Origin: a virus
Lineage: Duplodnaviria; Caudoviricetes
Direction: 5' to 3' (one strand)
IMG/VR virus record: IMGVR_UViG_3300028396_000020
Location: 1-36,380 of that record
Length of the DNA: 36,380 bases
Under the pieces are notes generated by a model. That model had not been told where the DNA came from. It did no database searches and saw only the letters and a list, made by a program, of their open reading frames with translations. Within the stretch, counting starts at the first letter, position 1. Every line of letters starts with the position of its first letter. The position numbers were made by a program, and so were the translations under genes. Positions 5,369-35,760 of the stretch are shown here, in pieces.

Positions 5369-5782
5369 TTACCCGTGTTGAGTTATTGTTTTTACTGCTT
5401 TGGCTCCCGATATATATTGCCCCACTGCGTTTAGTGCTTCTTCTATTGTTCGCATTCCTACGCCACCGCTTATACGCTCGTTAAACTCAAAACCTAAATT
5501 TGCGAGGGCTTCAGCCACTGCGCTTGATTCCTTGCAATATCCGCCACTATTTGCAGGGCTTTTCCCGCTTGAGCTGTCGTGGGTCATTGAGTGCAGCCAG
5601 ACGCACGCTGTACAGGTTCCGCCCTTTGTCCAGTAGATGCGGGTTGTTATTAACTCGCGAATTTCACCGCCTTGAATGCCCAATGTAGTTAGACCCTTTG
5701 AAAAGTGTTTCTCTTTTCGGTGGCTTGTTTTTATTGTTATCTGTGTGGCTTGGTGCTTTTTAGATACTTTGATTGTTTCCAT
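5369..5782 (-). CDS. Hypothetical early protein
   Basis: 137-aa ORF with TAAACAAATG start context and a GGYCKESSAV motif. Confidence 0.75.
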   Translation of the reverse strand: METIKVSKKHQATQITIKTSHRKEKHFSKGLTTLGIQGGEIRELITTRIYWTKGGTCTACVWLHSMTHDSSSGKSPANSGGYCKESSAVAEALANLGFEFNERISGGVGMRTIEEALNAVGQYISGAKAVKTITQHG

Positions 5783-6204: not shown

Positions 6205-6241
6205 TGTTTAAGGTATTGTGCCCCCTTGCGGGGGCTGGTTA

Positions 6242-6541
6242 TTATTTATTTTCTAAAGTTATGTTTTCAAAAAGGACTTTTTCCGTTACTTTCTTTCCAA
6301 ACATATTATATGTGTATAGGCTCATAGCTTTCCCCGTTATTTTTTCAACGTTCATTGACTCGCCCCACTTGCCTACCGAAGATATTATATATTCATCGTT
6401 TCCTATTTTTTCATCTGCTTCAATATAGCTAACGTGAAACTCAAACTTTGAACCTTTAATATAAAAGTTTAGTTTCTGGTTTGTTTTGCTTGCTGCTGCG
6501 ATTGTTTCCAATGCTTCAAAGATTTGTTTTGCGTTTTCCAT
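6242..6541 (-). CDS. Hypothetical early protein
   Basis: 99-aa ORF, first of the leftward cluster, with CTTAAAACAAATG start context. Confidence 0.75.
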   Translation of the reverse strand: MENAKQIFEALETIAAASKTNQKLNFYIKGSKFEFHVSYIEADEKIGNDEYIISSVGKWGESMNVEKITGKAMSLYTYNMFGKKVTEKVLFENITLENK

Positions 6542-7278
6542 TTGTTTTAAGTTTGCGCCCCTTTTCGGTGGCTGGTTTCTATACCTCTATTATACGACAA
6601 TTTGCCCAATAAAAAAGCAGTCCTTTATATATAAGCATAGATAAACAGGTGCTAAAGCATTGTTTTTCAGTGAGTTACAACAAATTTACACCTTTTTAAA
6701 GATTGAGTAAAAACACTTACTTTTTATTTGGTGGCTGGTACTTTTTACCTATTGAATTATTGCAAATAATAGCAAAATTGAGTATAAAAAAGATTGTTTT
6801 AAATTTGGTGGTTACAAACTCGGATAAAGACCCATTTTGACCTTTAATGTTAAGCCGCGCTATGACTGGGCTGAAGGTCATTTTCATTTATGCACTACCC
6901 TTTTATCAATTTTCACAAAATAGAACCCCTATAAACACTGGGCTAAAGGGCTGTTTTTCTTAAAGCATTAAAGGACTTTTTGGGCCTTACTTTTTGGGGT
7001 TTATTGGATTCAGACCCTCAACTTTTGCCCAAATTTTGGCGAGTGTCTCACTTGAGACGGGCCACGATTTCGGGAAAAATCGCAAAATCAAGGTCAAACC
7101 GTTACACGCGGTTGGGCGGATAAAAGGTACTCGTTTTACTTGGAAACGCGAACTCGTCAAAAAATTGGGGACTTTTTCTGTAACGGAAATCCCTGTGGAA
7201 TTGGGGCTTCCAGAATTAATGTAAAAGTTTTTTCAGTATTTATTTTGTATAAATTAGGATATTAACAAATATGTTCAT

Positions 7279-8688: not shown

Positions 8689-8828
8689 AGTAATATATTA
8701 CTTATATTAGTAATATATATCTATTAGAAGTAATATAATAGTAATATATAAGAATATATCTTTAAGATATATTCTATATTAGAAATATAATAGAAGAATA
8801 CTAATATACCCTACTGATATAAGGGTAT
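8689..8828. repeat. AT-rich iteron/palindrome block (replication origin candidate)
   Basis: AGTAATATA at 8689, 8709, 8729 and 8740; palindrome 8689-8702; 12-bp hairpin 8751-8775; directly upstream of a DnaA-C-like gene. Confidence 0.7.
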
Positions 8829-8845
8829 TTATACAGGAGTACGCT

Positions 8846-9370
8846 ATGAAAGAGAAAGATTTTTTAGACCTATCGCAAAAGAAGTTAGCCGCAGATGTGT
8901 GGGCTAAAATCACAAAGCATAAAAAGATACCATTGAAATCAAGAAAGCGTGAGTATGTCATACACCGACATAGCTTTTTAGTAGCGATGCGTAAATACTC
9001 TACGATGTCTCTTGATGCTATCGGAACGGTATTAGGTAAAGACCACGCCACAGTAATCCACGCTTGTAAACAACACGAGATGAATTACAAATTTGATAGG
9101 GACTACAAATCTGTGTACTATCAGATAGACAATATCGTAGCCAAGACGATGCTGCCTTATAGCTTACTGGAGGAACACACCTACGATGAGTTTATGGAGC
9201 GTAACAAGGCTGTACGGGAACGCCTTATGAAATTGGCAAGACAAAACAGAGAGTTGATAAGCACTAACAACCGATTAGCCCTTGAGAATGAATCTCTAAA
9301 GAAGCAGTCAAAGCAAGTTAATAGTGAGATTTCTGCATTAAAAACAAAAATTTCTGGTGTTGCGTGGTAG
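8846..9370 (+). CDS. DnaA C-terminal (domain IV)-like HTH protein with coiled coil
   Basis: SLDAIGTVLGKDHATVIHACK matches the DnaA domain IV signature (IG..F.RDH.TV.HA); no AAA+ domain. Confidence 0.85.
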   Translation: MKEKDFLDLSQKKLAADVWAKITKHKKIPLKSRKREYVIHRHSFLVAMRKYSTMSLDAIGTVLGKDHATVIHACKQHEMNYKFDRDYKSVYYQIDNIVAKTMLPYSLLEEHTYDEFMERNKAVRERLMKLARQNRELISTNNRLALENESLKKQSKQVNSEISALKTKISGVAW

Positions 9371-9525: not shown

Positions 9526-10059
9526 ATGAGTCGTTATCAGTTTAAGACCACCAACATCAAAGGAAAAGAATATGTTGAGGTCAATCAAAGAATCAAATAC
9601 TTCCGTGAAAGCGGACAATACGAAGGGTGGTCTCTGACCTCTGATGTATATCATTTAGATGAAGTATCTTGTGTAATCAAGGCTTCTGTACTCAACGATA
9701 AAGGAGATATAGTAGCCACAGGTTTTGCTCAAGAGGATAAGTCCAGTAGCTACATAAACAAAACAAGCTATGTGGAAAACTGTGAAACAAGTGCTTGGGG
9801 CCGTGCATTGGCTAATCTTGGTATTGGGATTGATACTTCTATTGCGAGTTCAAACGAGGTTTCAATGGCTATCTCAAAACAAGGAAGTAAACCTAAAGCT
9901 GCGGTTAAGGCAACTGCTAAAGTGAGTCTATTAGAACTTACTGATGAAATCAAATCAAAGATGGTTAAGGCTGTTAAAGATGGTAAGAAAGATGCAGTAG
10001 TTAAAGCACTGGATAAGTACGAGCTAACAGCAGCACAGCGTAATGAGATTCTTGCGTAA
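9526..10059 (+). CDS. Single-strand annealing protein (Rad52/Sak-like)
   Basis: IKGKEYVEV..RI and ENCETSAWGRALANLGIG motifs; adjacent to an exonuclease. Confidence 0.7.
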   Translation: MSRYQFKTTNIKGKEYVEVNQRIKYFRESGQYEGWSLTSDVYHLDEVSCVIKASVLNDKGDIVATGFAQEDKSSSYINKTSYVENCETSAWGRALANLGIGIDTSIASSNEVSMAISKQGSKPKAAVKATAKVSLLELTDEIKSKMVKAVKDGKKDAVVKALDKYELTAAQRNEILA

Positions 10060-10817
10060 TGACTGATTTAGAAAGATTCAAGGACGATGAAGCGTACTAC
10101 TCGGACAAATCTTATATGTCCAATAGTGCCTTCAAACTCCTGCGCCAATCACCAACAAAGTTCCACCTTTGGAAGCAAGGTAAGTGGAGTTACCCTTCTA
10201 CCTCATTCTTTGATGTAGGTACTGCACTACACGCTCTATTCCTTGAGGATAAAGAAGTAGCTGTACGATGGGAAGGAACTCGTAGAGGCAACGCCTATAA
10301 AGAGTTTAAGATGGAACACGAAGGCAAACTTGTGCTGCCCGAAAAGGATTATGATTTAGTCTATGGTATGTACGATAAGCTGCTTAAAGTTCCAGAGGTA
10401 AACGATATTATGGGCATAGAAGCCAAGCCCGAAGTTGCAGGTATAAAAACATTTGTAACGGAAAGCGGAAACGAGATTGCAGTAAAAGGTAAAGCTGATG
10501 CAATAGTCTTTGATGGCGAGAAGAACTATATCGTAGACCTAAAGACCACCGCTAAATCACTTGAGGATTTTAAGAAGTCAGCGAGATTTATGCTGTACAA
10601 TCAACAAGCATACCTCTACAAGACTATCTTTGGAATGGACGATTTCTATTTCCTCGTAGTGGAAAAGGTATTCCCATATGAGGTGGGTATATTTAAAGCC
10701 TCTGATGACTTCCTACACTGGGGAGAAGTAGAGTTGAATACAAGTATTAATGTTTACGAAAAAAGATTTTTAAATGAGCAATTCAGACCTTACAGCGCAA
10801 TGGTTGGAGAACTGTAA
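10059..10817 (+). CDS. RecE/exonuclease VIII-like PD-(D/E)XK nuclease (DUF3799-like)
   Basis: SNS..K.L..SP, GTALH, KGKAD, IVDLKTT and YNQQAYLY motifs. Confidence 0.85.
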   Translation: MTDLERFKDDEAYYSDKSYMSNSAFKLLRQSPTKFHLWKQGKWSYPSTSFFDVGTALHALFLEDKEVAVRWEGTRRGNAYKEFKMEHEGKLVLPEKDYDLVYGMYDKLLKVPEVNDIMGIEAKPEVAGIKTFVTESGNEIAVKGKADAIVFDGEKNYIVDLKTTAKSLEDFKKSARFMLYNQQAYLYKTIFGMDDFYFLVVEKVFPYEVGIFKASDDFLHWGEVELNTSINVYEKRFLNEQFRPYSAMVGEL

Positions 10818-11205
10818 CCACTTTGAAAAGATGGTGGTACTCAATGCAGTAGACGTAACAGGAGTAGATAAAGAGCATTTCTACACTGGTCGTAGGTTTC
10901 CTATCGTAGTGAGAACCAGAGCGTTGATAGCAAGAGTCCTCCGTGATTCACATTACACGATGAAGAACATCGCAAGTGTATTGAAGATTACAGCAGAGAT
11001 GGCAGCTAACTACTGCACGGCAAACCATAACGAGTACCTTCAAAAAAATCCAGACTATGAGGGTATGTACAATCGTTTGACAAATGCGATAGAGCAAGTC
11101 CACAGCAGCGACAATGGCGTTGAACAACGCTTATCAGATGTGGAAATTGAGATAAGTAGAATGAAACAAAGAGTAGACCACCTCTCCAAACTGGTCGTAG
11201 AGTAA
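10774..11205 (+). CDS. Second, divergent DnaA-C-like HTH protein
   Basis: RR..IVVRTRALIARVLRDSHYTMKNIASVL pattern plus C-terminal coiled coil. Confidence 0.5.
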   Translation: MSNSDLTAQWLENCNHFEKMVVLNAVDVTGVDKEHFYTGRRFPIVVRTRALIARVLRDSHYTMKNIASVLKITAEMAANYCTANHNEYLQKNPDYEGMYNRLTNAIEQVHSSDNGVEQRLSDVEIEISRMKQRVDHLSKLVVE

Positions 11206-11234
11206 TTCTTTTTATTAACTAAATATCTATTAAG

Positions 11235-11471
11235 ATGACTGAAAAGAAATTTGTAGGAAGTACGCGTGTAAAGACCACGAAGTACGGACAGATTATCAAT
11301 CTTGGGCTGAAAGCTTCAGACCTTGAAACACTAAAGGCTAACCTCAACGATAGAGGTTGGGTAAACATTGACCTCAAGTCTAAAAAAGACGGTGGTTTTT
11401 ATGCAGAGATTCCTACGATGGAGTTCAAAGGAGCTGCTGCAACTAATGCACAAGATGACGACTTGTTCTAA
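11235..11471 (+). CDS. Putative small ssDNA-binding protein
   Basis: Beta-rich 78 aa with an SSB-like acidic tail QDDDLF; in the recombination module. Confidence 0.65.
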   Translation: MTEKKFVGSTRVKTTKYGQIINLGLKASDLETLKANLNDRGWVNIDLKSKKDGGFYAEIPTMEFKGAAATNAQDDDLF

Positions 11472-11480
11472 AACGTTAAA

Positions 11481-11549
11481 GGGGAAAAGGAAATAGCTTT
11501 ACTGGGGAGTAGGTTATAAAAGGGGGGTTCAATTCCCCCCTCCCCTCCA
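11481..11549 (+). ncRNA. tRNA-like element (T-arm, acceptor stem and CCA; no canonical D arm)
   Basis: GGGGG-TTCAATT-CCCCC T-arm followed by CTCCCC-T-CCA; GGGGAG at 11504 (or GGGGA at 11481) can close an acceptor stem. Confidence 0.55.
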
Positions 11550-11561
11550 AAATCAATTACT

Positions 11562-11702
11562 ATGAATAAGATGAATCAGTTCCTACGCATAGCAAATGCG
11601 AGGTTAAGAAGGGTGTACCCTAACAAGATGCAGAGAAAGGCTTGGGCTGCTAATATGTGGCGCAGGTATGTTGAAAGGCAAAACGTAGAAAGAGACCTTT
11701 AA
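11562..11702 (+). CDS. Small basic protein (46 aa, not in ORF track)
   Basis: MNKMNQFLRIANARLRRVYPNKMQRKAWAANMWRRYVERQNVERDL. Confidence 0.65.
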   Translation: MNKMNQFLRIANARLRRVYPNKMQRKAWAANMWRRYVERQNVERDL

Positions 11703-11814
11703 AACCAAAGATGATACAGAACGATAATGTTTATTTAAACAGACTGAATGTCGCTTATTTGCGTCATTAATGAGCGTTTAAGCATATAATGATGGGTTTA
11801 TCAGTCAAATTATA

Positions 11815-11902
11815 GGCGCAAGCATATAAAAATAGGCGCATAAGTGGCGCGTAAAATGGGGATGTGGCGCATAAATGGCGCATAAAATCAAATTATGGCG
11901 CA
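11815..11902. repeat. Phased array of six GGCGC motifs
   Basis: Starts at 11815, 11835, 11846, 11866, 11877 and 11897 (spacing 20, 11, 20, 11, 20). Confidence 0.9.
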
Positions 11903-11923
11903 AACCTTTAACACCAAAGAGAG

Positions 11924-12121
11924 ATGAAAATAATAATAGGAATCATTGTAATAGCACTACTTGCAATAGGTGCTTATTGGACGGGCAAGGCTTTTACTCC
12001 CAAAGAATTTTACGAAGAAGCCGACTGCTATATATGCTATGGACTTAAGATATGGGCTTTGTTTTGGTTAATTGTGGTAGCATCTTGGGGTGTTGGTAGT
12101 TTGGTTATGCAGTTACTTTAA
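11924..12121 (+). CDS. Two-TM small membrane protein (cassette)
   Basis: Two hydrophobic segments; bounded by junction repeats. Confidence 0.75.
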   Translation: MKIIIGIIVIALLAIGAYWTGKAFTPKEFYEEADCYICYGLKIWALFWLIVVASWGVGSLVMQLL

Positions 12122-12134
12122 CAACAAACGAGAA

Positions 12135-12350
12135 ATGATTGAAGTCACACTACTAATTATCGCAATTGCATTTGTATCACTCATCGTAGTGAAGGAAATC
12201 CAAGACTATCTTTTTTGGAGGCGCATTGACAAAGCATTTGAGAATGGTTTCAAAGAGATGAATGAATTATTGAAAAAGAAACTTGAAGGAGTTGAGGATA
12301 AAGACTTTTATTCTTATTGTATGAAAACCTTAAAAACAAAAGAGAAATGA
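12135..12350 (+). CDS. Single-TM small protein (cassette), ends TLKTKEK
   Basis: Start at the ATG of junction 3; stop within junction 4. Confidence 0.75.
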   Translation: MIEVTLLIIAIAFVSLIVVKEIQDYLFWRRIDKAFENGFKEMNELLKKKLEGVEDKDFYSYCMKTLKTKEK

Positions 12351-12574
12351 AAACATTAGTTCAACTATTAAACGATGCCGTAGTAGAGGCAGATATTCGT
12401 GGACACAAAGGAAAAATCAATGTATCCCCTGCTTTTTTTGATATAAGGAATTACTCTGAAAAAGAAAAGTGTATAGGTTATTTAATCTACGCAGGTAGAT
12501 TTGGTGGCTACGAGTTACAAAGGGACTCAAGTCTACAAGGATATGGCATAACCCTTAACACCAAAGAGGGATGA
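12347..12574 (+). CDS. Small hypothetical protein (cassette), ends TLNTKEG
   Basis: ATGA overlap in junction 4; stop within junction 5. Confidence 0.75.
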   Translation: MKTLVQLLNDAVVEADIRGHKGKINVSPAFFDIRNYSEKEKCIGYLIYAGRFGGYELQRDSSLQGYGITLNTKEG

Positions 12575-12660
12575 CACTTGAGGATATTGTAGCCTGTTTA
12601 CTTGTGTTAGCTTGGAACGGCTACCTAATTTATAAATTGAGAAAGGATAATAAATTATGA
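12571..12660 (+). CDS. 29-aa single-TM peptide (not in ORF track)
   Basis: MTLEDIVACLLVLAWNGYLIYKLRKDNKL; ATGA overlaps at both ends. Confidence 0.6.
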   Translation: MTLEDIVACLLVLAWNGYLIYKLRKDNKL

Positions 12661-12830
12661 AAACAAACTACAAGTCAAAGAGAACAAGCGGAAGCAAAAG
12701 GGTAATTAGCGATATTCGCAGTTACGCAATAGCCAATGCTAAAAAGACAAAGGGCAAATCAGAGTTGTACAACCGCATAGTTCAGCTTTGCGAAAGAGAT
12801 TTAACAGAGTATGGTATTGAGTATGATTAA
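12657..12830 (+). CDS. 57-aa basic protein (not in ORF track)
   Basis: MKTNYKSKRTSGSKRVISDIRSY...EYGIEYD; coupled to its neighbours. Confidence 0.6.
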   Translation: MKTNYKSKRTSGSKRVISDIRSYAIANAKKTKGKSELYNRIVQLCERDLTEYGIEYD

Positions 12831-13020
12831 ATCTTATAACAGAAAGAGAAGACACATACGCGAGGTAGAAAAATATCTGGAGATGCTTATGTTGGATAAT
12901 GTAAACCTCTCTCTTCACGCCAGTAGATTTGGTTGGGACGATGACTTACAAAATCAATTAACCAACTCTGCCTTACTGATACGCAAGTATCAAAGAAGGT
13001 TGAGATTAATCATAATGTAA
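12823..13020 (+). CDS. Hypothetical protein
   Basis: Helical basic ORF; TAATG overlap with the next gene. Confidence 0.7.
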   Translation: MIKSYNRKRRHIREVEKYLEMLMLDNVNLSLHASRFGWDDDLQNQLTNSALLIRKYQRRLRLIIM

Positions 13021-13523
13021 TGACTTCATACGATATACCTAAATCACTAAAAGAAAAGACTTGGGAATGGTTACAAGACCATTCTATGGGACACCGATTT
13101 GATGCTAATGGCTCTAAAGCAGAGCAGTTTGTAGGTTTGTTAGGAGAGAATATGTTTCGTATCCTAAATGACTTGCCGCCAAAGTTTGAAGATGGATTTG
13201 ATGGCGGACACGACCTCATCTTTATGGGGCGTAAAGCGGATGTAAAGACAATGGGCAGACGTGTTGACCCTAAACCCCACTACGTCAACAACTTCGTTGG
13301 TTATCAAAAGGATTTTGACTGTGAACTATATATATTTTGCAGCATAAACAAGTCTACAAATACCTTCTGGATATGTGGATACACCGATAAGGAGACACTA
13401 CTTACCGAGTCCAACTTCTACGAAAAGGGAGATAAGAGATACAGAGACGATGGTAGCTACTTTATAAATAAAGCACCATTGTATGAGATTGAGAACACTA
13501 AACTAAAACCATTAATAATATGA
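13020..13523 (+). CDS. PD-(D/E)XK endonuclease-like protein
   Basis: GLLGE...GHDL...ADVKT motif arrangement. Confidence 0.65.
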   Translation: MTSYDIPKSLKEKTWEWLQDHSMGHRFDANGSKAEQFVGLLGENMFRILNDLPPKFEDGFDGGHDLIFMGRKADVKTMGRRVDPKPHYVNNFVGYQKDFDCELYIFCSINKSTNTFWICGYTDKETLLTESNFYEKGDKRYRDDGSYFINKAPLYEIENTKLKPLII

Positions 13524-13636
13524 GCGATAAATACTTTTGTGGTGGATGTGATAAACAGATACCAATAGTAATCGGATTCAATCAGTTGCATATATGTGAT
13601 TGTGGGACATTAAATAATATAGGAGATGCAGAATAA
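13520..13636 (+). CDS. 38-aa zinc-ribbon peptide (not in ORF track)
   Basis: MSDKYFCGGCDKQIPIVIGFNQLHICDCGTLNNIGDAE (CxxC...CxCG). Confidence 0.65.
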   Translation: MSDKYFCGGCDKQIPIVIGFNQLHICDCGTLNNIGDAE

Positions 13637-32214: not shown

Positions 32215-35087
32215 TATATTCTGTCGTTTCTATCTCTAATTCTACGTTCTGTAGCGTTACCACGCAAGTCTTTGTCTGCAACATAAGCTCTTACAGGCTT
32301 ACTTACGCCTATAGCTGTTGAGGTAGTAGCCTCTGCAATAGCCTTTAGGTAATCTACACTTTCATTGCTTTGGATTGACACGAGTCCACCTGTTGCGAAC
32401 TTATGTTGGCCCTGTAATGGTCTTACCTTGTAAGAATTATTTATACGCTCAAGTAAGTCTCGGTGCATATGAGAGGCTTTTTTATTTACTATAAACTCTC
32501 CACCTTCCATTTCATATCCACCTTTACCCTGTACAGAGAATGGTACACCGCCTTCAGAGTGAGAAGGTCCATTTACCATACCCCCTTCAGCAAACTTTTT
32601 AGGAACAAACTGACGCTGATTAATAGCTGCAACTTGTCCTGCATAAGATATTGCCGAAGCTCCAGATGTTATTAATGCGTTAATAGCACTTGCTGGGAAT
32701 GGCACTCCTGCAAGAACCTCATTTATGAAAGCTTGTGCAAGAGCAGCAAGATAATCAGCTTTAGCGTTATTTAAGTCTTGCTTTTTCTCTGCGTTAAAAC
32801 TTTGTCTTTCTACACTGTTCTCTTCAGCTACTTGAGCTTGTCTTAACTCTTTTTGCTTCTGTCTAAATTGAGACTCTGTAATTAATTGATTATCAAGTTG
32901 AGATTTTAATATATCTCCTTCTGTCTCGTATCTGTTTTTTATTAAATCAATTTCTGCATCTAATTCATTTTGAAGTTGCTGCAAACGCTCATCGGCTATA
33001 TTTTGATATATATCATTAGCCATATCCGCGCCTTCTTGAGCAAGTTGCTCTCCAAGTTGAAGAAGAGAATAAGCTGCTTCATCACCAAGTTTTTGAAAGA
33101 ACGTCCTTGCCTCTTCTATAGACTCTGGTGGAAATACGGGTGCCAATTGCAACGCTTCATCAGAATCCTCTAATATATCGGCAACATCTTTGGTTAGCTT
33201 TTTAGCAAATTCTTTTATGTAGCCTTTTGCTTCGCCAGTAGTGGAAAGTGAGGCCATCGCTTTATACAGGTTAGTTACAATAGCCTTTATATCAGCATCA
33301 TCAAACTGAAAATCTGCAATTTGCTGCTGAAGTGTTTCCAACTTACCTATTTCAGCAACAGTTTTTTTGTATTCATCAGAACCTTTGGTGAGTTTATCAA
33401 GGCTGTCTTTTGAAGCATCTATTTGCGTTTGAAGGTTTGCGTATTCTTCATTGGCAAGTCTGTTGGCTTCTAAAGCTTGTTTTTGATTTATTATCTCATT
33501 TTTTTTGCTTTTTAAAAGTTCTTGTCCAGCTTCTGTAACTTTTAGAATTGCTCGTTCTTGACCCGCGGAAGCAAGTAAATCATCTTTTTTTGTTCTTATA
33601 AGTTTTGCAGTTTCCTCAATAAGACCTCTATATGCTTGTTGACCTTGTTCGGTCATACCTGATATAGCATATCCATTCTTTAGTATCTGCTCATCGGAAT
33701 AAGATATCTTACCTCTGTCAATAAGTGTTTGTCTTGTTATCTTTTCAGCTTCTTTATAGATATTCTTTCCGTTTTTAACAACTTCTTTAGCGGCTGTTTC
33801 CGAACTTTCAGATATTAATTCAAAGAAGTCGTTATCTTTTAGTTGCTTGTAAGCAGCCAATTGATTTTCAACAGCTTCTGGTAATACTATTTTAAAGAAG
33901 TTGTTAAAAACAGTACCACCAATAGTGGAAGTGTCAGCGAGTTTAATTAAGAAAGCATCAAAAGCAGAATTTAATAATTTAAATTTACCCGAAAGCGTGT
34001 CTATTTGTTTTGCTGAAGCTTGCGTAGCAGCACCTAATTCACCAAATTTACCAGAATATTCCTCAAGCTTGTCAATGTTATTAATAAGCACAGTAGCTTG
34101 TGCTACCGCTGTCTTGCCAAATACCTCTGTAATCTCATTTAATGATAATTGCTCTCCTTTTAAAGATGTTAAAGTTTCCTTTAAACTCTCTCCAGATTCT
34201 CCTACCTCAAGCAAAATCTTACGAAGACCTGTACCAATACGAGATGCTTGGAAACCACTGTCTGCAAGAACACCCATTGCTGCTGCCGTTTCTTGGAATG
34301 TAATACCCAACTGCCCCGCAATAGGAGCAACATAGGCAATTGAAGTCCCAAAAGACTCAAAAGATAGTGCAGAGCCGTTAATTGCCGAGGTGAGTGTATC
34401 CGCTACAGAAGCTGCTTGTGAAGCATCAAGATTAAAAGCACGAATGGTAACACCAACTTTCTGTGCAATATCGCCAAGTCCTACGCCCAAAGCTTGTGCT
34501 GCGTTAGCTATAGCAAGCGTAGACTGTTGTATTTCTGCTGCTGAAAAACCAAGTTTACCAAGTTCTGTTTGAAGACCTGCAATTTCTACAGCCGTAAATG
34601 TCGTAGCACCTGCTACATCAAGAGTGTTTTTTCTTAAAGATTCAAGTTCAATTCCTGTAGCATTGGTAACAGCACCTACTCTGGCAGTAGCTGACTCTAA
34701 TTCTGCAAATCTCTTTACAGCACCTACTGTAAAAGTCTGTGCAAGTCTTAAAGCTCCATTAAGGAGTAAGTAACCACTATAGAAAGATATAATGGTTTTA
34801 ATATTCTTGAGCATCGTTGCTCCAAACCCTTTTGACTTCTTATTGTTGTCATCAGTGTTTTTACCGAACTTCTTTTGCTCTTTATTAGCCTCCTTTAAGT
34901 TGTCTTTGTACTTTTTAGTTTTAGCCGAAGCCTTATCTACTTCTTGCTCAAGTTTCTTTGTACTACCCGTTATTTTAGAGATAGTCTTATCAAGGTCAAT
35001 TAAACCTCCAGATACTTCTCTTACAGCTTTTGCTAATTTGCGTAGCGCATCTTGTAGAAACTGTATTCTATTACTTTGTTCTGCCAT
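32214..35087 (-). CDS. Tail tape measure protein (TP901/PhageMin_Tail type)
   Basis: TTFTAVEIA....ELGKLGFS, YVAPIA, LADSG.QAS..GTGLR; Ala-rich helical; C-terminal FAEGG..GPSH..GG. Confidence 0.93.
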   Translation of the reverse strand: MAEQSNRIQFLQDALRKLAKAVREVSGGLIDLDKTISKITGSTKKLEQEVDKASAKTKKYKDNLKEANKEQKKFGKNTDDNNKKSKGFGATMLKNIKTIISFYSGYLLLNGALRLAQTFTVGAVKRFAELESATARVGAVTNATGIELESLRKNTLDVAGATTFTAVEIAGLQTELGKLGFSAAEIQQSTLAIANAAQALGVGLGDIAQKVGVTIRAFNLDASQAASVADTLTSAINGSALSFESFGTSIAYVAPIAGQLGITFQETAAAMGVLADSGFQASRIGTGLRKILLEVGESGESLKETLTSLKGEQLSLNEITEVFGKTAVAQATVLINNIDKLEEYSGKFGELGAATQASAKQIDTLSGKFKLLNSAFDAFLIKLADTSTIGGTVFNNFFKIVLPEAVENQLAAYKQLKDNDFFELISESSETAAKEVVKNGKNIYKEAEKITRQTLIDRGKISYSDEQILKNGYAISGMTEQGQQAYRGLIEETAKLIRTKKDDLLASAGQERAILKVTEAGQELLKSKKNEIINQKQALEANRLANEEYANLQTQIDASKDSLDKLTKGSDEYKKTVAEIGKLETLQQQIADFQFDDADIKAIVTNLYKAMASLSTTGEAKGYIKEFAKKLTKDVADILEDSDEALQLAPVFPPESIEEARTFFQKLGDEAAYSLLQLGEQLAQEGADMANDIYQNIADERLQQLQNELDAEIDLIKNRYETEGDILKSQLDNQLITESQFRQKQKELRQAQVAEENSVERQSFNAEKKQDLNNAKADYLAALAQAFINEVLAGVPFPASAINALITSGASAISYAGQVAAINQRQFVPKKFAEGGMVNGPSHSEGGVPFSVQGKGGYEMEGGEFIVNKKASHMHRDLLERINNSYKVRPLQGQHKFATGGLVSIQSNESVDYLKAIAEATTSTAIGVSKPVRAYVADKDLRGNATERRIRDRNDRI

Positions 35088-35088
35088 T

Positions 35089-35760
35089 TTATAGCTTGCT
35101 TAACATTTTATCTAACTTATTGATTACCGTTCCATAGGTGTAATCATCGTAATCATTTAAATAACGGGTGAAGGCTCTTTGTAAGGCCCCGTTAAGTCCA
35201 TTCTTCCCTTTAAGGAAGCCTAACCAACCCGTTTCTCTAACTCCAACTGAACTAATCTTTTTTGTAACGTGGTATGATATGTTCCAAGCTGCGCTTGTTG
35301 TCATTTCGCCTCCACTTATGTTGCCTCCTCTATAGAACCACTGACCTGTAGGGTATCTGTTTGCCTTGGCTAATACCCATCTGTATATATCGTTCTGATT
35401 AACCACGTCTGGCTTACCACCTTTATCAAGAGTATCTCCATAAGCTTCCATATCAATTCTTGCGGAAACTTGCTCAATCCCAATACCTAAACCCAAATAA
35501 GCATCAACTTTAATTTTTGATGTTATTCTTTTGCCCCAATTTGTCTGACCGTCTTTATTAGGGGTAATACTTTTCTCTAACCTACCAGTTGCTTTGTGTA
35601 TATAAGGTTCCCCGTCTATAGCAGTACCTTTTAAGTTAGATTTTAATCTGCTTATTATCTGTGATTTATTAAGCTCTTGTTGTATGTAGAAACGCAAAGC
35701 ACCCTGCTGCTGTTGTTTAGCGGCATCGCGGTTCTTCATTCTATTTACATTAACAGCCAT
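35089..35760 (-). CDS. Putative neck/tail-completion protein (allele B)
   Basis: About 23 of 223 residues differ from 35-706 (manual count). Confidence 0.5.
   Translation of the reverse strand: MAVNVNRMKNRDAAKQQQQGALRFYIQQELNKSQIISRLKSNLKGTAIDGEPYIHKATGRLEKSITPNKDGQTNWGKRITSKIKVDAYLGLGIGIEQVSARIDMEAYGDTLDKGGKPDVVNQNDIYRWVLAKANRYPTGQWFYRGGNISGGEMTTSAAWNISYHVTKKISSVGVRETGWLGFLKGKNGLNGALQRAFTRYLNDYDDYTYGTVINKLDKMLSKL

Follow-up and report, generated by a model that had tools for sequence, protein, structure and literature searches.

How orphan genes come to be placed in phage genomes, by exchange at shared linkers or by random illegitimate joins, is an old question. A 36,380-nucleotide stretch of viral DNA (Caudoviricetes; IMG/VR record IMGVR_UViG_3300028396_000020, positions 1 to 36,380; hereafter, the window) raises it in a form that can be counted. 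Five related sequences of about 24 bases stand there at successive boundaries between short, unrelated units. A sequence-only reading had taken this region for an integron-like array of mini-cassettes that lacks an integrase. Is the shared sequence (hereafter, the joint, with its copies called junctions) a point at which genes are exchanged, and if so, what acts on it?

The phage and its likely host

The record analyzed represents a complete virus, a phage of ~35 kb, whose ends repeat with an offset of 35,054 bases. This end overlap (1–300 versus 35,055–35,354) is just 96% identical over the first 300 bases, so the two record ends may stem from different strains. The window genes include those for a terminase, portal, tape-measure protein, primase/helicase, RusA and exonuclease VIII, and the array sits between recombination genes and the helicase. 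The metagenome runs that hold the window are from seawater. The starts of window genes are varied and A-rich (A at −3 in 21 of 43, where the junction has G), and a Shine-Dalgarno-like word was present at only 5 of the 43. When the exact motif was located in GTDB, four of the six contigs labelled Bacteroidota or other (four of seven contigs overall) belonged to Flavobacteriaceae, Flavobacteriales or Saprospiraceae bins. Together, the scarcity of Shine-Dalgarno-like starts and these bin labels suggest that the hosts of these phages are likely Flavobacteriia.

Five junctions with a common stop/start sequence

The letters and coordinates of the five junctions, all on the plus strand, were confirmed: junction 1 (11695..11714), junction 2 (11904..11927), junction 3 (12115..12138), junction 4 (12327..12350) and junction 5 (12551..12574), with spacings of 209, 211, 212, and 224 bp. 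Compared to the 24-base consensus, the window contains three sites with four or fewer mismatches and five sites with six or fewer, where order-4 Markov shuffles (n = 100) gave means of 0.00 and 0.21 sites, respectively. We built a matrix from 156 sites in loci selected by protein homology; upon scanning the genome, junction 2, which has the consensus form (44 bits), junction 5 (37 bits), junction 4 (34 bits), and the degenerate junction 3 (16 bits) were its four best sites. Junction 1 scored low (9 bits; best site outside the array: 9.7 bits) because it is four bases short. It likely arose by a join with the 3′ end of another cassette gene, known from relatives (41 aa, ending TKDDTER), and such a hybrid would account for the missing bases; in one locus (L340), the unit that follows junction 1 stands behind a different gene. 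The matrix signal is sharp, spanning 24–27 bases with almost no information beyond them, and 155 of the 156 sites lie on the coding strand, with no locus carrying the motif on both strands.

The joint holds two stops, namely TAA at +5 to +7, in frame with the ATG at +20, and TGA, which overlaps that ATG as ATGA; the ATG itself is present in 289/297 junction contexts. The proposal that the junction ends the upstream gene through a TFNTKEK frame held for junctions 4 and 5, two of the five; at junctions 1 and 3 the upstream frame ends at the second stop, TAA, and junction 2 is entered by no translation, so that the window uses each stop twice. Preceding the array is a 46-aa gene (11562..11702, +), which ends at the TAA inside junction 1 and is present in many relatives with differing right neighbors. 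Unit 1 (11711..11903, +) consists of a 19-codon ORF and a non-coding leader. The ORF of unit 2 (65 aa with two hydrophobic stretches; 11924..12121, +) ends at the TAA of junction 3, that of unit 3 (71 aa with a hydrophobic N-terminus; 12135..12350, +) ends TLKTKEK at the TGA of junction 4, and that of unit 4 (75 aa; 12347..12574, +) ends TLNTKEG at the TGA of junction 5. A 29-aa ORF (12571..12660, +) follows the last junction; it is missing in one relative (L085) and replaced in another (L086). The contents had been described as one non-coding unit, two membrane proteins and one soluble protein, of which the membrane and soluble labels fit the hydrophobic stretches by eye, but unit 1 proved not to be an ordinary cassette (see below). 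A 38-aa Cys-rich gene (13520–13636) lies outside the array in the window, and an 81–86% identical copy stands directly behind a junction in relatives (L008, L009, L010, and L082).

Structural and transcriptional signals were absent from the junctions in every scan. A small dyad in the joint, CTTT-N6-AAAG, displayed no compensatory changes or covariation over its 4 bp and a fold of −0.5 kcal/mol, and 71-base strands around junctions 2, 4 and 5 (n = 6) folded no better than shuffles (z of 0.1–0.8 in five of the six, −0.8 in one). Rfam gave no match at the junctions, ARAGORN found no tRNA, and a terminator scan of the array was negative. Sigma-70-like promoters numbered 5 versus 4.7 expected, in a scan whose reach does not extend to phage-specific promoters. 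The Bacteroidota −7 motif, TAnnTTTG, occurs once in 11200–12900, within unit 4, and at none of the junctions. In four of four RNA libraries, contigs cover parts of units 2–4, and two of these bridge junction 4, in a type of library that may also contain DNA. No such contig extends past 12585, an absence that carries no weight as evidence.

Units are gained, lost, and replaced at the joint

It had been predicted that cassette content would vary among relatives with breakpoints inside the junction, and this was borne out: relatives that are 93–100% identical on the flanks delete, add or replace whole units at junctions, so the gene content of the region is not constant. In one relative (G050/L087), 98.6% identity runs to 11711 and the match resumes at 12551, with one junction kept. 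Another (L005) is without units 1–4; a third (L085) carries an extra 435-bp unit ahead of unit 2 and has junction 5 joined straight to the gene at 12657; a fourth (L082) has an extra 209-bp unit behind unit 4; and in a fifth (L362) the leader runs directly into junction 4 and unit 4. Unit 4, at 93–100% identity, was found with six right neighbors, and unit 2, at 100% identity, in five left contexts, each switch falling at a junction.

Quantification over 473 distinct contexts, using flank classes seen at least twice, revealed an unrelated partner across the junction in 68/73 downstream and 76/83 upstream classes, compared to 6/64 and 5/68, respectively, across 383 ordinary ATGA overlaps in homology-selected loci; that is, neighbors change in ~93% of classes at the joint versus ~8% at ordinary overlaps. 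Junctions in the homology-selected loci alone gave 16/17 and 18/20. In four seawater runs, 19 of the 24 loose contig ends listed were at junctions, mostly at junction 2. The stored loci held no change of neighbor at junction 3, behind which there was one loose contig end, and every locus that spans units 2 and 3 has them together. We conclude that the junction is a real, functional exchange point.

Exchange is not confined to the joint. Between the window and G050, more than 10 further gene-level breaks lie away from any junction, indicating that the joint is one exchange route among several, and homologues of unit 5 were also found behind an ordinary ATGA overlap. A change in cassette order, which had been expected along with the change in content, was not seen: none of seven testable ordered pairs, taken from independent array groups with overlapping pieces of one contig excluded, was reversed. 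Likewise, no duplicated cassette was present within an array among the genomes compared. The contig joins listed (contigs, not reads) included no backward joint, the single entry from 11922 to 11747 being a piece with nine mismatches from another context.

One cassette occurs in a 70-aa form (L082:10916–11148) and in two 42-aa forms (L199 and L213) that are cut at an internal junction-like sequence, which reads ETQNAKE in place of ETFNTKE. This suggests that recombination at decayed joints makes genes longer or shorter.

Unit 1 is a leader

In addition to its 19-codon ORF, unit 1 contains a conserved leader that heads arrays in many phages and is marked by a doublet, GGCGCA-N14-GGCGCA (11809..11840, +), whose copies are 20 bases apart; further GGCGC copies continue on to 11903. 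In an independent scan, a junction lay within 30 bases downstream of the doublet in 57 of 101 contexts. In 39 of the 101, mostly from phages of lower G+C, the locus had no junction, and other short recurring units follow the doublet there. Sites preceded by the leader were first in their array in 27/33 cases versus 89/231 for all others. Unit 1 is thus a leader and not cargo. The leader also contains other recurring blocks of ~10–15 bases each.

The joint is shared between phage groups and serves an open cassette pool

Extrapolating from 15 of 64 parts, we estimate that the exact motif is present in ~520 stored viral stretches. GTDB contains eight loci with the exact motif, all on MAG contigs, where the flanking-protein matches, if any, are to families common in phages; in the atlas searches, viral clusters alone gave matches. 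A blastn search of INPHARED with the array returned seven matches at chance level and tblastn with one cassette protein returned none, so no cultured phage with the motif was found in that collection. In the literature that we covered, which consisted of main texts and included few subscription journals, there was no description of the motif and no mention of TFNTKEK.

From a full reading of 13 motif-bearing records, we distinguish groups with few or no proteins of at least 100 aa in common: 35–38-kb tailed phages like the window, 27–32-kb phages, 59–67-kb phages whose terminase and portal are different, one type of 116 kb, and a fragment of a T4-like myovirus (G026) that encodes a clamp loader and a gp23-type head protein and carries at least 22 sites. 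The lineage labels behind these groups (sipho, podo60, big116, T4like, small) are informal ones derived from shared proteins and PHROG matches and do not constitute a formal taxonomy. Two of the records, G008 and G045, have 1–2 proteins of at least 100 aa in common, yet share a 233-bp junction-to-junction piece at 90.6% identity, and all eight DNA matches listed between them lie within 400 bases of a junction. More generally, DNA common to different groups concentrates at the arrays, along with some pieces that are far from junctions, such as tail-region DNA shared by the window and G012. Among 14 genomes compared, two cassette families were common to more than one lineage. The joint is therefore a single linker that crosses family boundaries between lytic-type phages, and we regard it as a new variant of linker-mediated shuffling.

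The cassettes themselves are small. The ORF downstream of a junction has a median length of 57 aa (2/289 reach 200 aa), and the median junction spacing is 217 bp. In 134 of 181 segments, a single ORF ends inside the next junction or at most 30 bases before it; in detail, the ORF stops at the TGA of the junction in 67, at its TAA in 42, at another point within it in 3 and no more than 30 bases ahead of it in 22. Of the rest, 43 end earlier and 4 read through. The 43 early ends arise in part because weaker junctions were missed. The 238 bodies form 187 families, of which 160 were seen once, indicating that the cassette pool is open. Of 122 cassette proteins, 14 had a PHROG match (108 had none) and two a Pfam match, both to NUMOD4-HNH endonucleases. 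Searches with the motif can thus reach a large set of small proteins that lack annotation and are candidates for roles in host takeover or counter-defence.

The NUMOD4-HNH genes are themselves cassettes, with the junction TAA as their stop (L173:525–1022 and L231:1432–1998). About 25 of the 122 cassette proteins fit the patterns of one mosaic family of small helical proteins (L174, L234, L101, L156 and others) without a Pfam or PHROG match, which start like MKTPMQELI and end like YYNETFNTKEK; this family may be the source of the joint.

Recombination proteins and a proposed mechanism

The sequence-only reading had placed a single-strand annealing protein, a RecE-like exonuclease and an SSB upstream of the array, and two of the three were upheld. 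A 177-aa protein (9526..10059, +) has a predicted Rad52/Mgm101-like fold (AlphaFold pLDDT 79), with Mgm101 and RAD52 as its best Foldseek matches (E of 5e-4 to 1e-2; TM about 0.3–0.4) and no match in Pfam; the fold match is modest (TM about 0.39), and the protein is a candidate single-strand annealing protein. The next gene (10059..10817, +) encodes exonuclease VIII, a RecE-like PD-(D/E)XK nuclease (phrog_412, E 8e-38; PF12684, E 2e-16). The SSB label is a tentative one: the 78-aa protein concerned (11235..11471, +) has an acidic C-terminal tail and no family match.

The claim that no integrase is present was correct for the recombinase types searched. No tyrosine recombinase (PF00589) was detected in the window or in any of 50 motif-bearing records (0/12 near-complete), in a search that detected 14 of 14 positive controls, and no resolvase (PF00239) was found in the window. 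The family of the window's annealing protein is present in 11 of the 50 motif-bearing records (4/12 near-complete; a twelfth match is weak and C-terminal), so the adjacent protein, which had been suggested as the shuffler, is not the dedicated partner of the joint. Other carriers encode Erf (G023), Sak (G028), or Sak4 (G033), each with exonuclease VIII, and no annealing protein was identified among the scanned proteins of G026, G012, and G044. The local Rad52-fold protein would accordingly be one of several candidate annealing proteins.

The length of the joint, 24–27 bases, matches the minimal pairing segment published for Redβ (23–27 bp; RecA: 31–34 bp), as given in the accessible part of PMC3945230. 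Within the joint, positions 0–4 track the upstream flank and positions 22–23 the downstream flank, while positions 8–19 are tied to neither and lack a left-right gradient. This flat linkage argues against one fixed cut and fits a core that is inherited as a block via heteroduplex; conversion among copies or repeated mutation could also produce it.

We think it probable that exchange at the joint is driven by homology and depends on general recombination proteins that the phages themselves encode. When phages co-infect a cell, or when replicating copies meet, an exonuclease would expose a single strand and a protein of the Rad52, Erf, or Sak type would anneal two joints. Exchange at one or two joints would then delete, insert or replace whole units and leave the core genes untouched. 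Anything landing behind a joint would gain an ATG and an adjacent terminating ribosome, so that its translation may be coupled to that of its neighbor, and frequent exchange together with conversion would keep the joint uniform over phage families. A bolder proposal, which we offer tentatively, is that unrelated families of marine Flavobacteriia phages have converged on, or pass round, one universal stop/start plug, long enough for annealing proteins, too short for efficient pairing by RecA and headed by the GGCGCA leader. They would in this way share an open, integrase-free library of small genes, and new genes would grow as the joint recombines with joint-like stretches within genes.

Other explanations for the joint

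Instead of being kept for exchange, the joint might be kept mainly as a control signal for translation or RNA (re-initiation, or a site of protein binding or cutting), with exchange as a by-product of its repetition. Its single orientation, its near-constant ATG with a stop in two frames, and its likeness to the start-associated sequences of cluster K mycobacteriophages, as far as the consulted part of PMC3203893 describes them, point in this direction, and if the phage families had a host in common, this would account for their sharing of the joint. However, none of the 43 other listed window genes is preceded by the motif, which is thus far from being equally frequent before core genes, the joint has G at the −3 position where 21 of those 43 starts have A, and it is equally conserved behind non-coding DNA. 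We judge this reading unlikely; it is compatible with exchange by homology, the difference lying in the target of selection. Another candidate is a sequence-specific recombinase dedicated to the joint, or a host factor, perhaps acting together with the GGCGCA leader, as in an integron whose enzyme is supplied in trans. The near-invariant core, the CTTT-N6-AAAG dyad and a conserved leader heading arrays would suit such an enzyme, but the recombinase searches (PF00589 in the window and 50 records, PF00239 in the window) were negative, the dyad has no compensatory changes, junction DNA folds no better than shuffles, no fixed crossover point is apparent, and the GTDB matches show no sign of a chromosomal array, which leaves it quite improbable.

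That TFNTKEK is a functional C-terminal peptide tag, with the DNA repeat secondary, is suggested by the 67/181 segments that end in this frame and by the small-protein family, to which ~25 of the 122 cassette proteins may be assigned, that often ends so. This reading is largely refuted, and we give it very little credence: one cassette is found with either ending (…SILNL in L174 and …SILTFKTKEK in L271), the Thr codon ACC is kept at 83–89% in the TFNTKEK frame versus 14% genome-wide, and mismatches to the joint average 1.8 where it is untranslated (n = 184), 1.4 in the TFNTKEK frame (n = 129), and 2.2 in the TAA frame (n = 70). Given the two stops, the equal conservation of untranslated copies, and the lack of a hairpin, promoter, or integrase, the joint is neither that of an integron nor a peptide tag. 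Finally, since all data are metagenomic contigs, and the match runs to within 200 bases of a contig end in 27 of 80 motif loci, the changing neighbors might be assembly chimeras formed at a short repeat. Against this, identical joins recur in independent array groups (the seven ordered pairs), the join of 11726 to 11903 is common to the separate runs X11 and X16, junction variants travel with particular flanks, and usual reads and assembly words are longer than a repeat of 24–27 bases; we consider chimeras highly improbable.

Comparison with known systems

Integrons and CALINs are made up of tandem, promoterless, single-gene cassettes of mostly unknown function, which are recombined by the tyrosine recombinase IntI at attC hairpins. 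The arrays described here are likewise tandem series of promoterless single-ORF cassettes of mostly unknown function. They differ in having no IntI, attC hairpin, or sign of reordering, and their joint is conserved in sequence and not in structure; the likeness to integrons that had been drawn did not survive, as the tests for an attC hairpin and for an integrase were both negative.

The closest known system is that of the PeSL cassettes of the T4-type phages RB49, phi1, PST, and nt-1, as presented in the accessible parts of PMC2839356 and PMC4122927. There, too, a repeated motif stands before orphan genes in hypervariable regions, the breakpoints of insertions, deletions and replacements lie in it, an integrase is lacking, and general recombination has been proposed; the authors likewise draw the comparison to integrons (PMC2839356). 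In contrast, PeSLs, as those sections portray them, are units of promoter and stem-loop that isolate transcription, whereas the joint has neither promoter nor hairpin, is confined to 24–27 bases, overlaps the coding ends, probably couples translation, and keeps one sequence across unrelated families. PeSL mini-circles have been demonstrated, according to the same sections, and the joint is known here from contigs alone. The linkers of the modular theory of Botstein and Campbell and the T-even internal-protein loci (Repoila et al., 1994; both via the accessible part of PMC2839356) resemble the joint in that flanking homology places the incoming module. Those linkers, by that account, act within one phage group, and the internal-protein elements are built on early promoters; the joint is a stop/start signal that serves an open pool.

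The start-associated sequences of cluster K mycobacteriophages (SAS/ESAS; PMC3203893, in part) are also short, asymmetric, one-orientation repeats directly before the ATG of non-structural genes. They are nearly absent from host genomes, sometimes include the upstream stop, and sometimes have a second upstream element. In the sections of PMC3203893 at hand, however, the SAS is described as 13 bases with a Shine-Dalgarno core, found in one cluster, for which a role in initiation, and not in recombination, is proposed; the consensus of the joint is without AGGAG and is spread over lineages that share few or no proteins. Rad52-like phage recombinases are the likely enzyme class, and the window and three other carriers of the joint encode a candidate annealing protein and exonuclease VIII; the part of PMC3945230 consulted treats flanking homology as incidental, whereas the joint is one standard site repeated in arrays.

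Other features of the window

AT-rich direct repeats (8691–8802 and 8846–9370) lie just 5′ of a gene whose product matches the C-terminal helix-turn-helix of DnaA (PF08299, E 5e-12); these repeats form a possible replication origin. A 30-base hairpin-like repeat is present in three copies (5705–5734, 6216–6245, and 6553–6582), which are 511 and 337 bases apart. The small genes around them are on the minus strand, and the window, G009, and G050 are not alike in this region; the three copies are possibly a second, PeSL-like array. Lastly, between the gene for the acidic-tailed protein and the 46-aa gene, we noticed a hairpin whose loop is of the tRNA T-loop type and behind which a run of pyrimidines leads to CCA (11503–11550, +). 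It gives a weak match to the tmRNA T-arm (E 0.006), relatives keep the hairpin with altered stem pairs, and RNA may be processed at this site, in front of the array.
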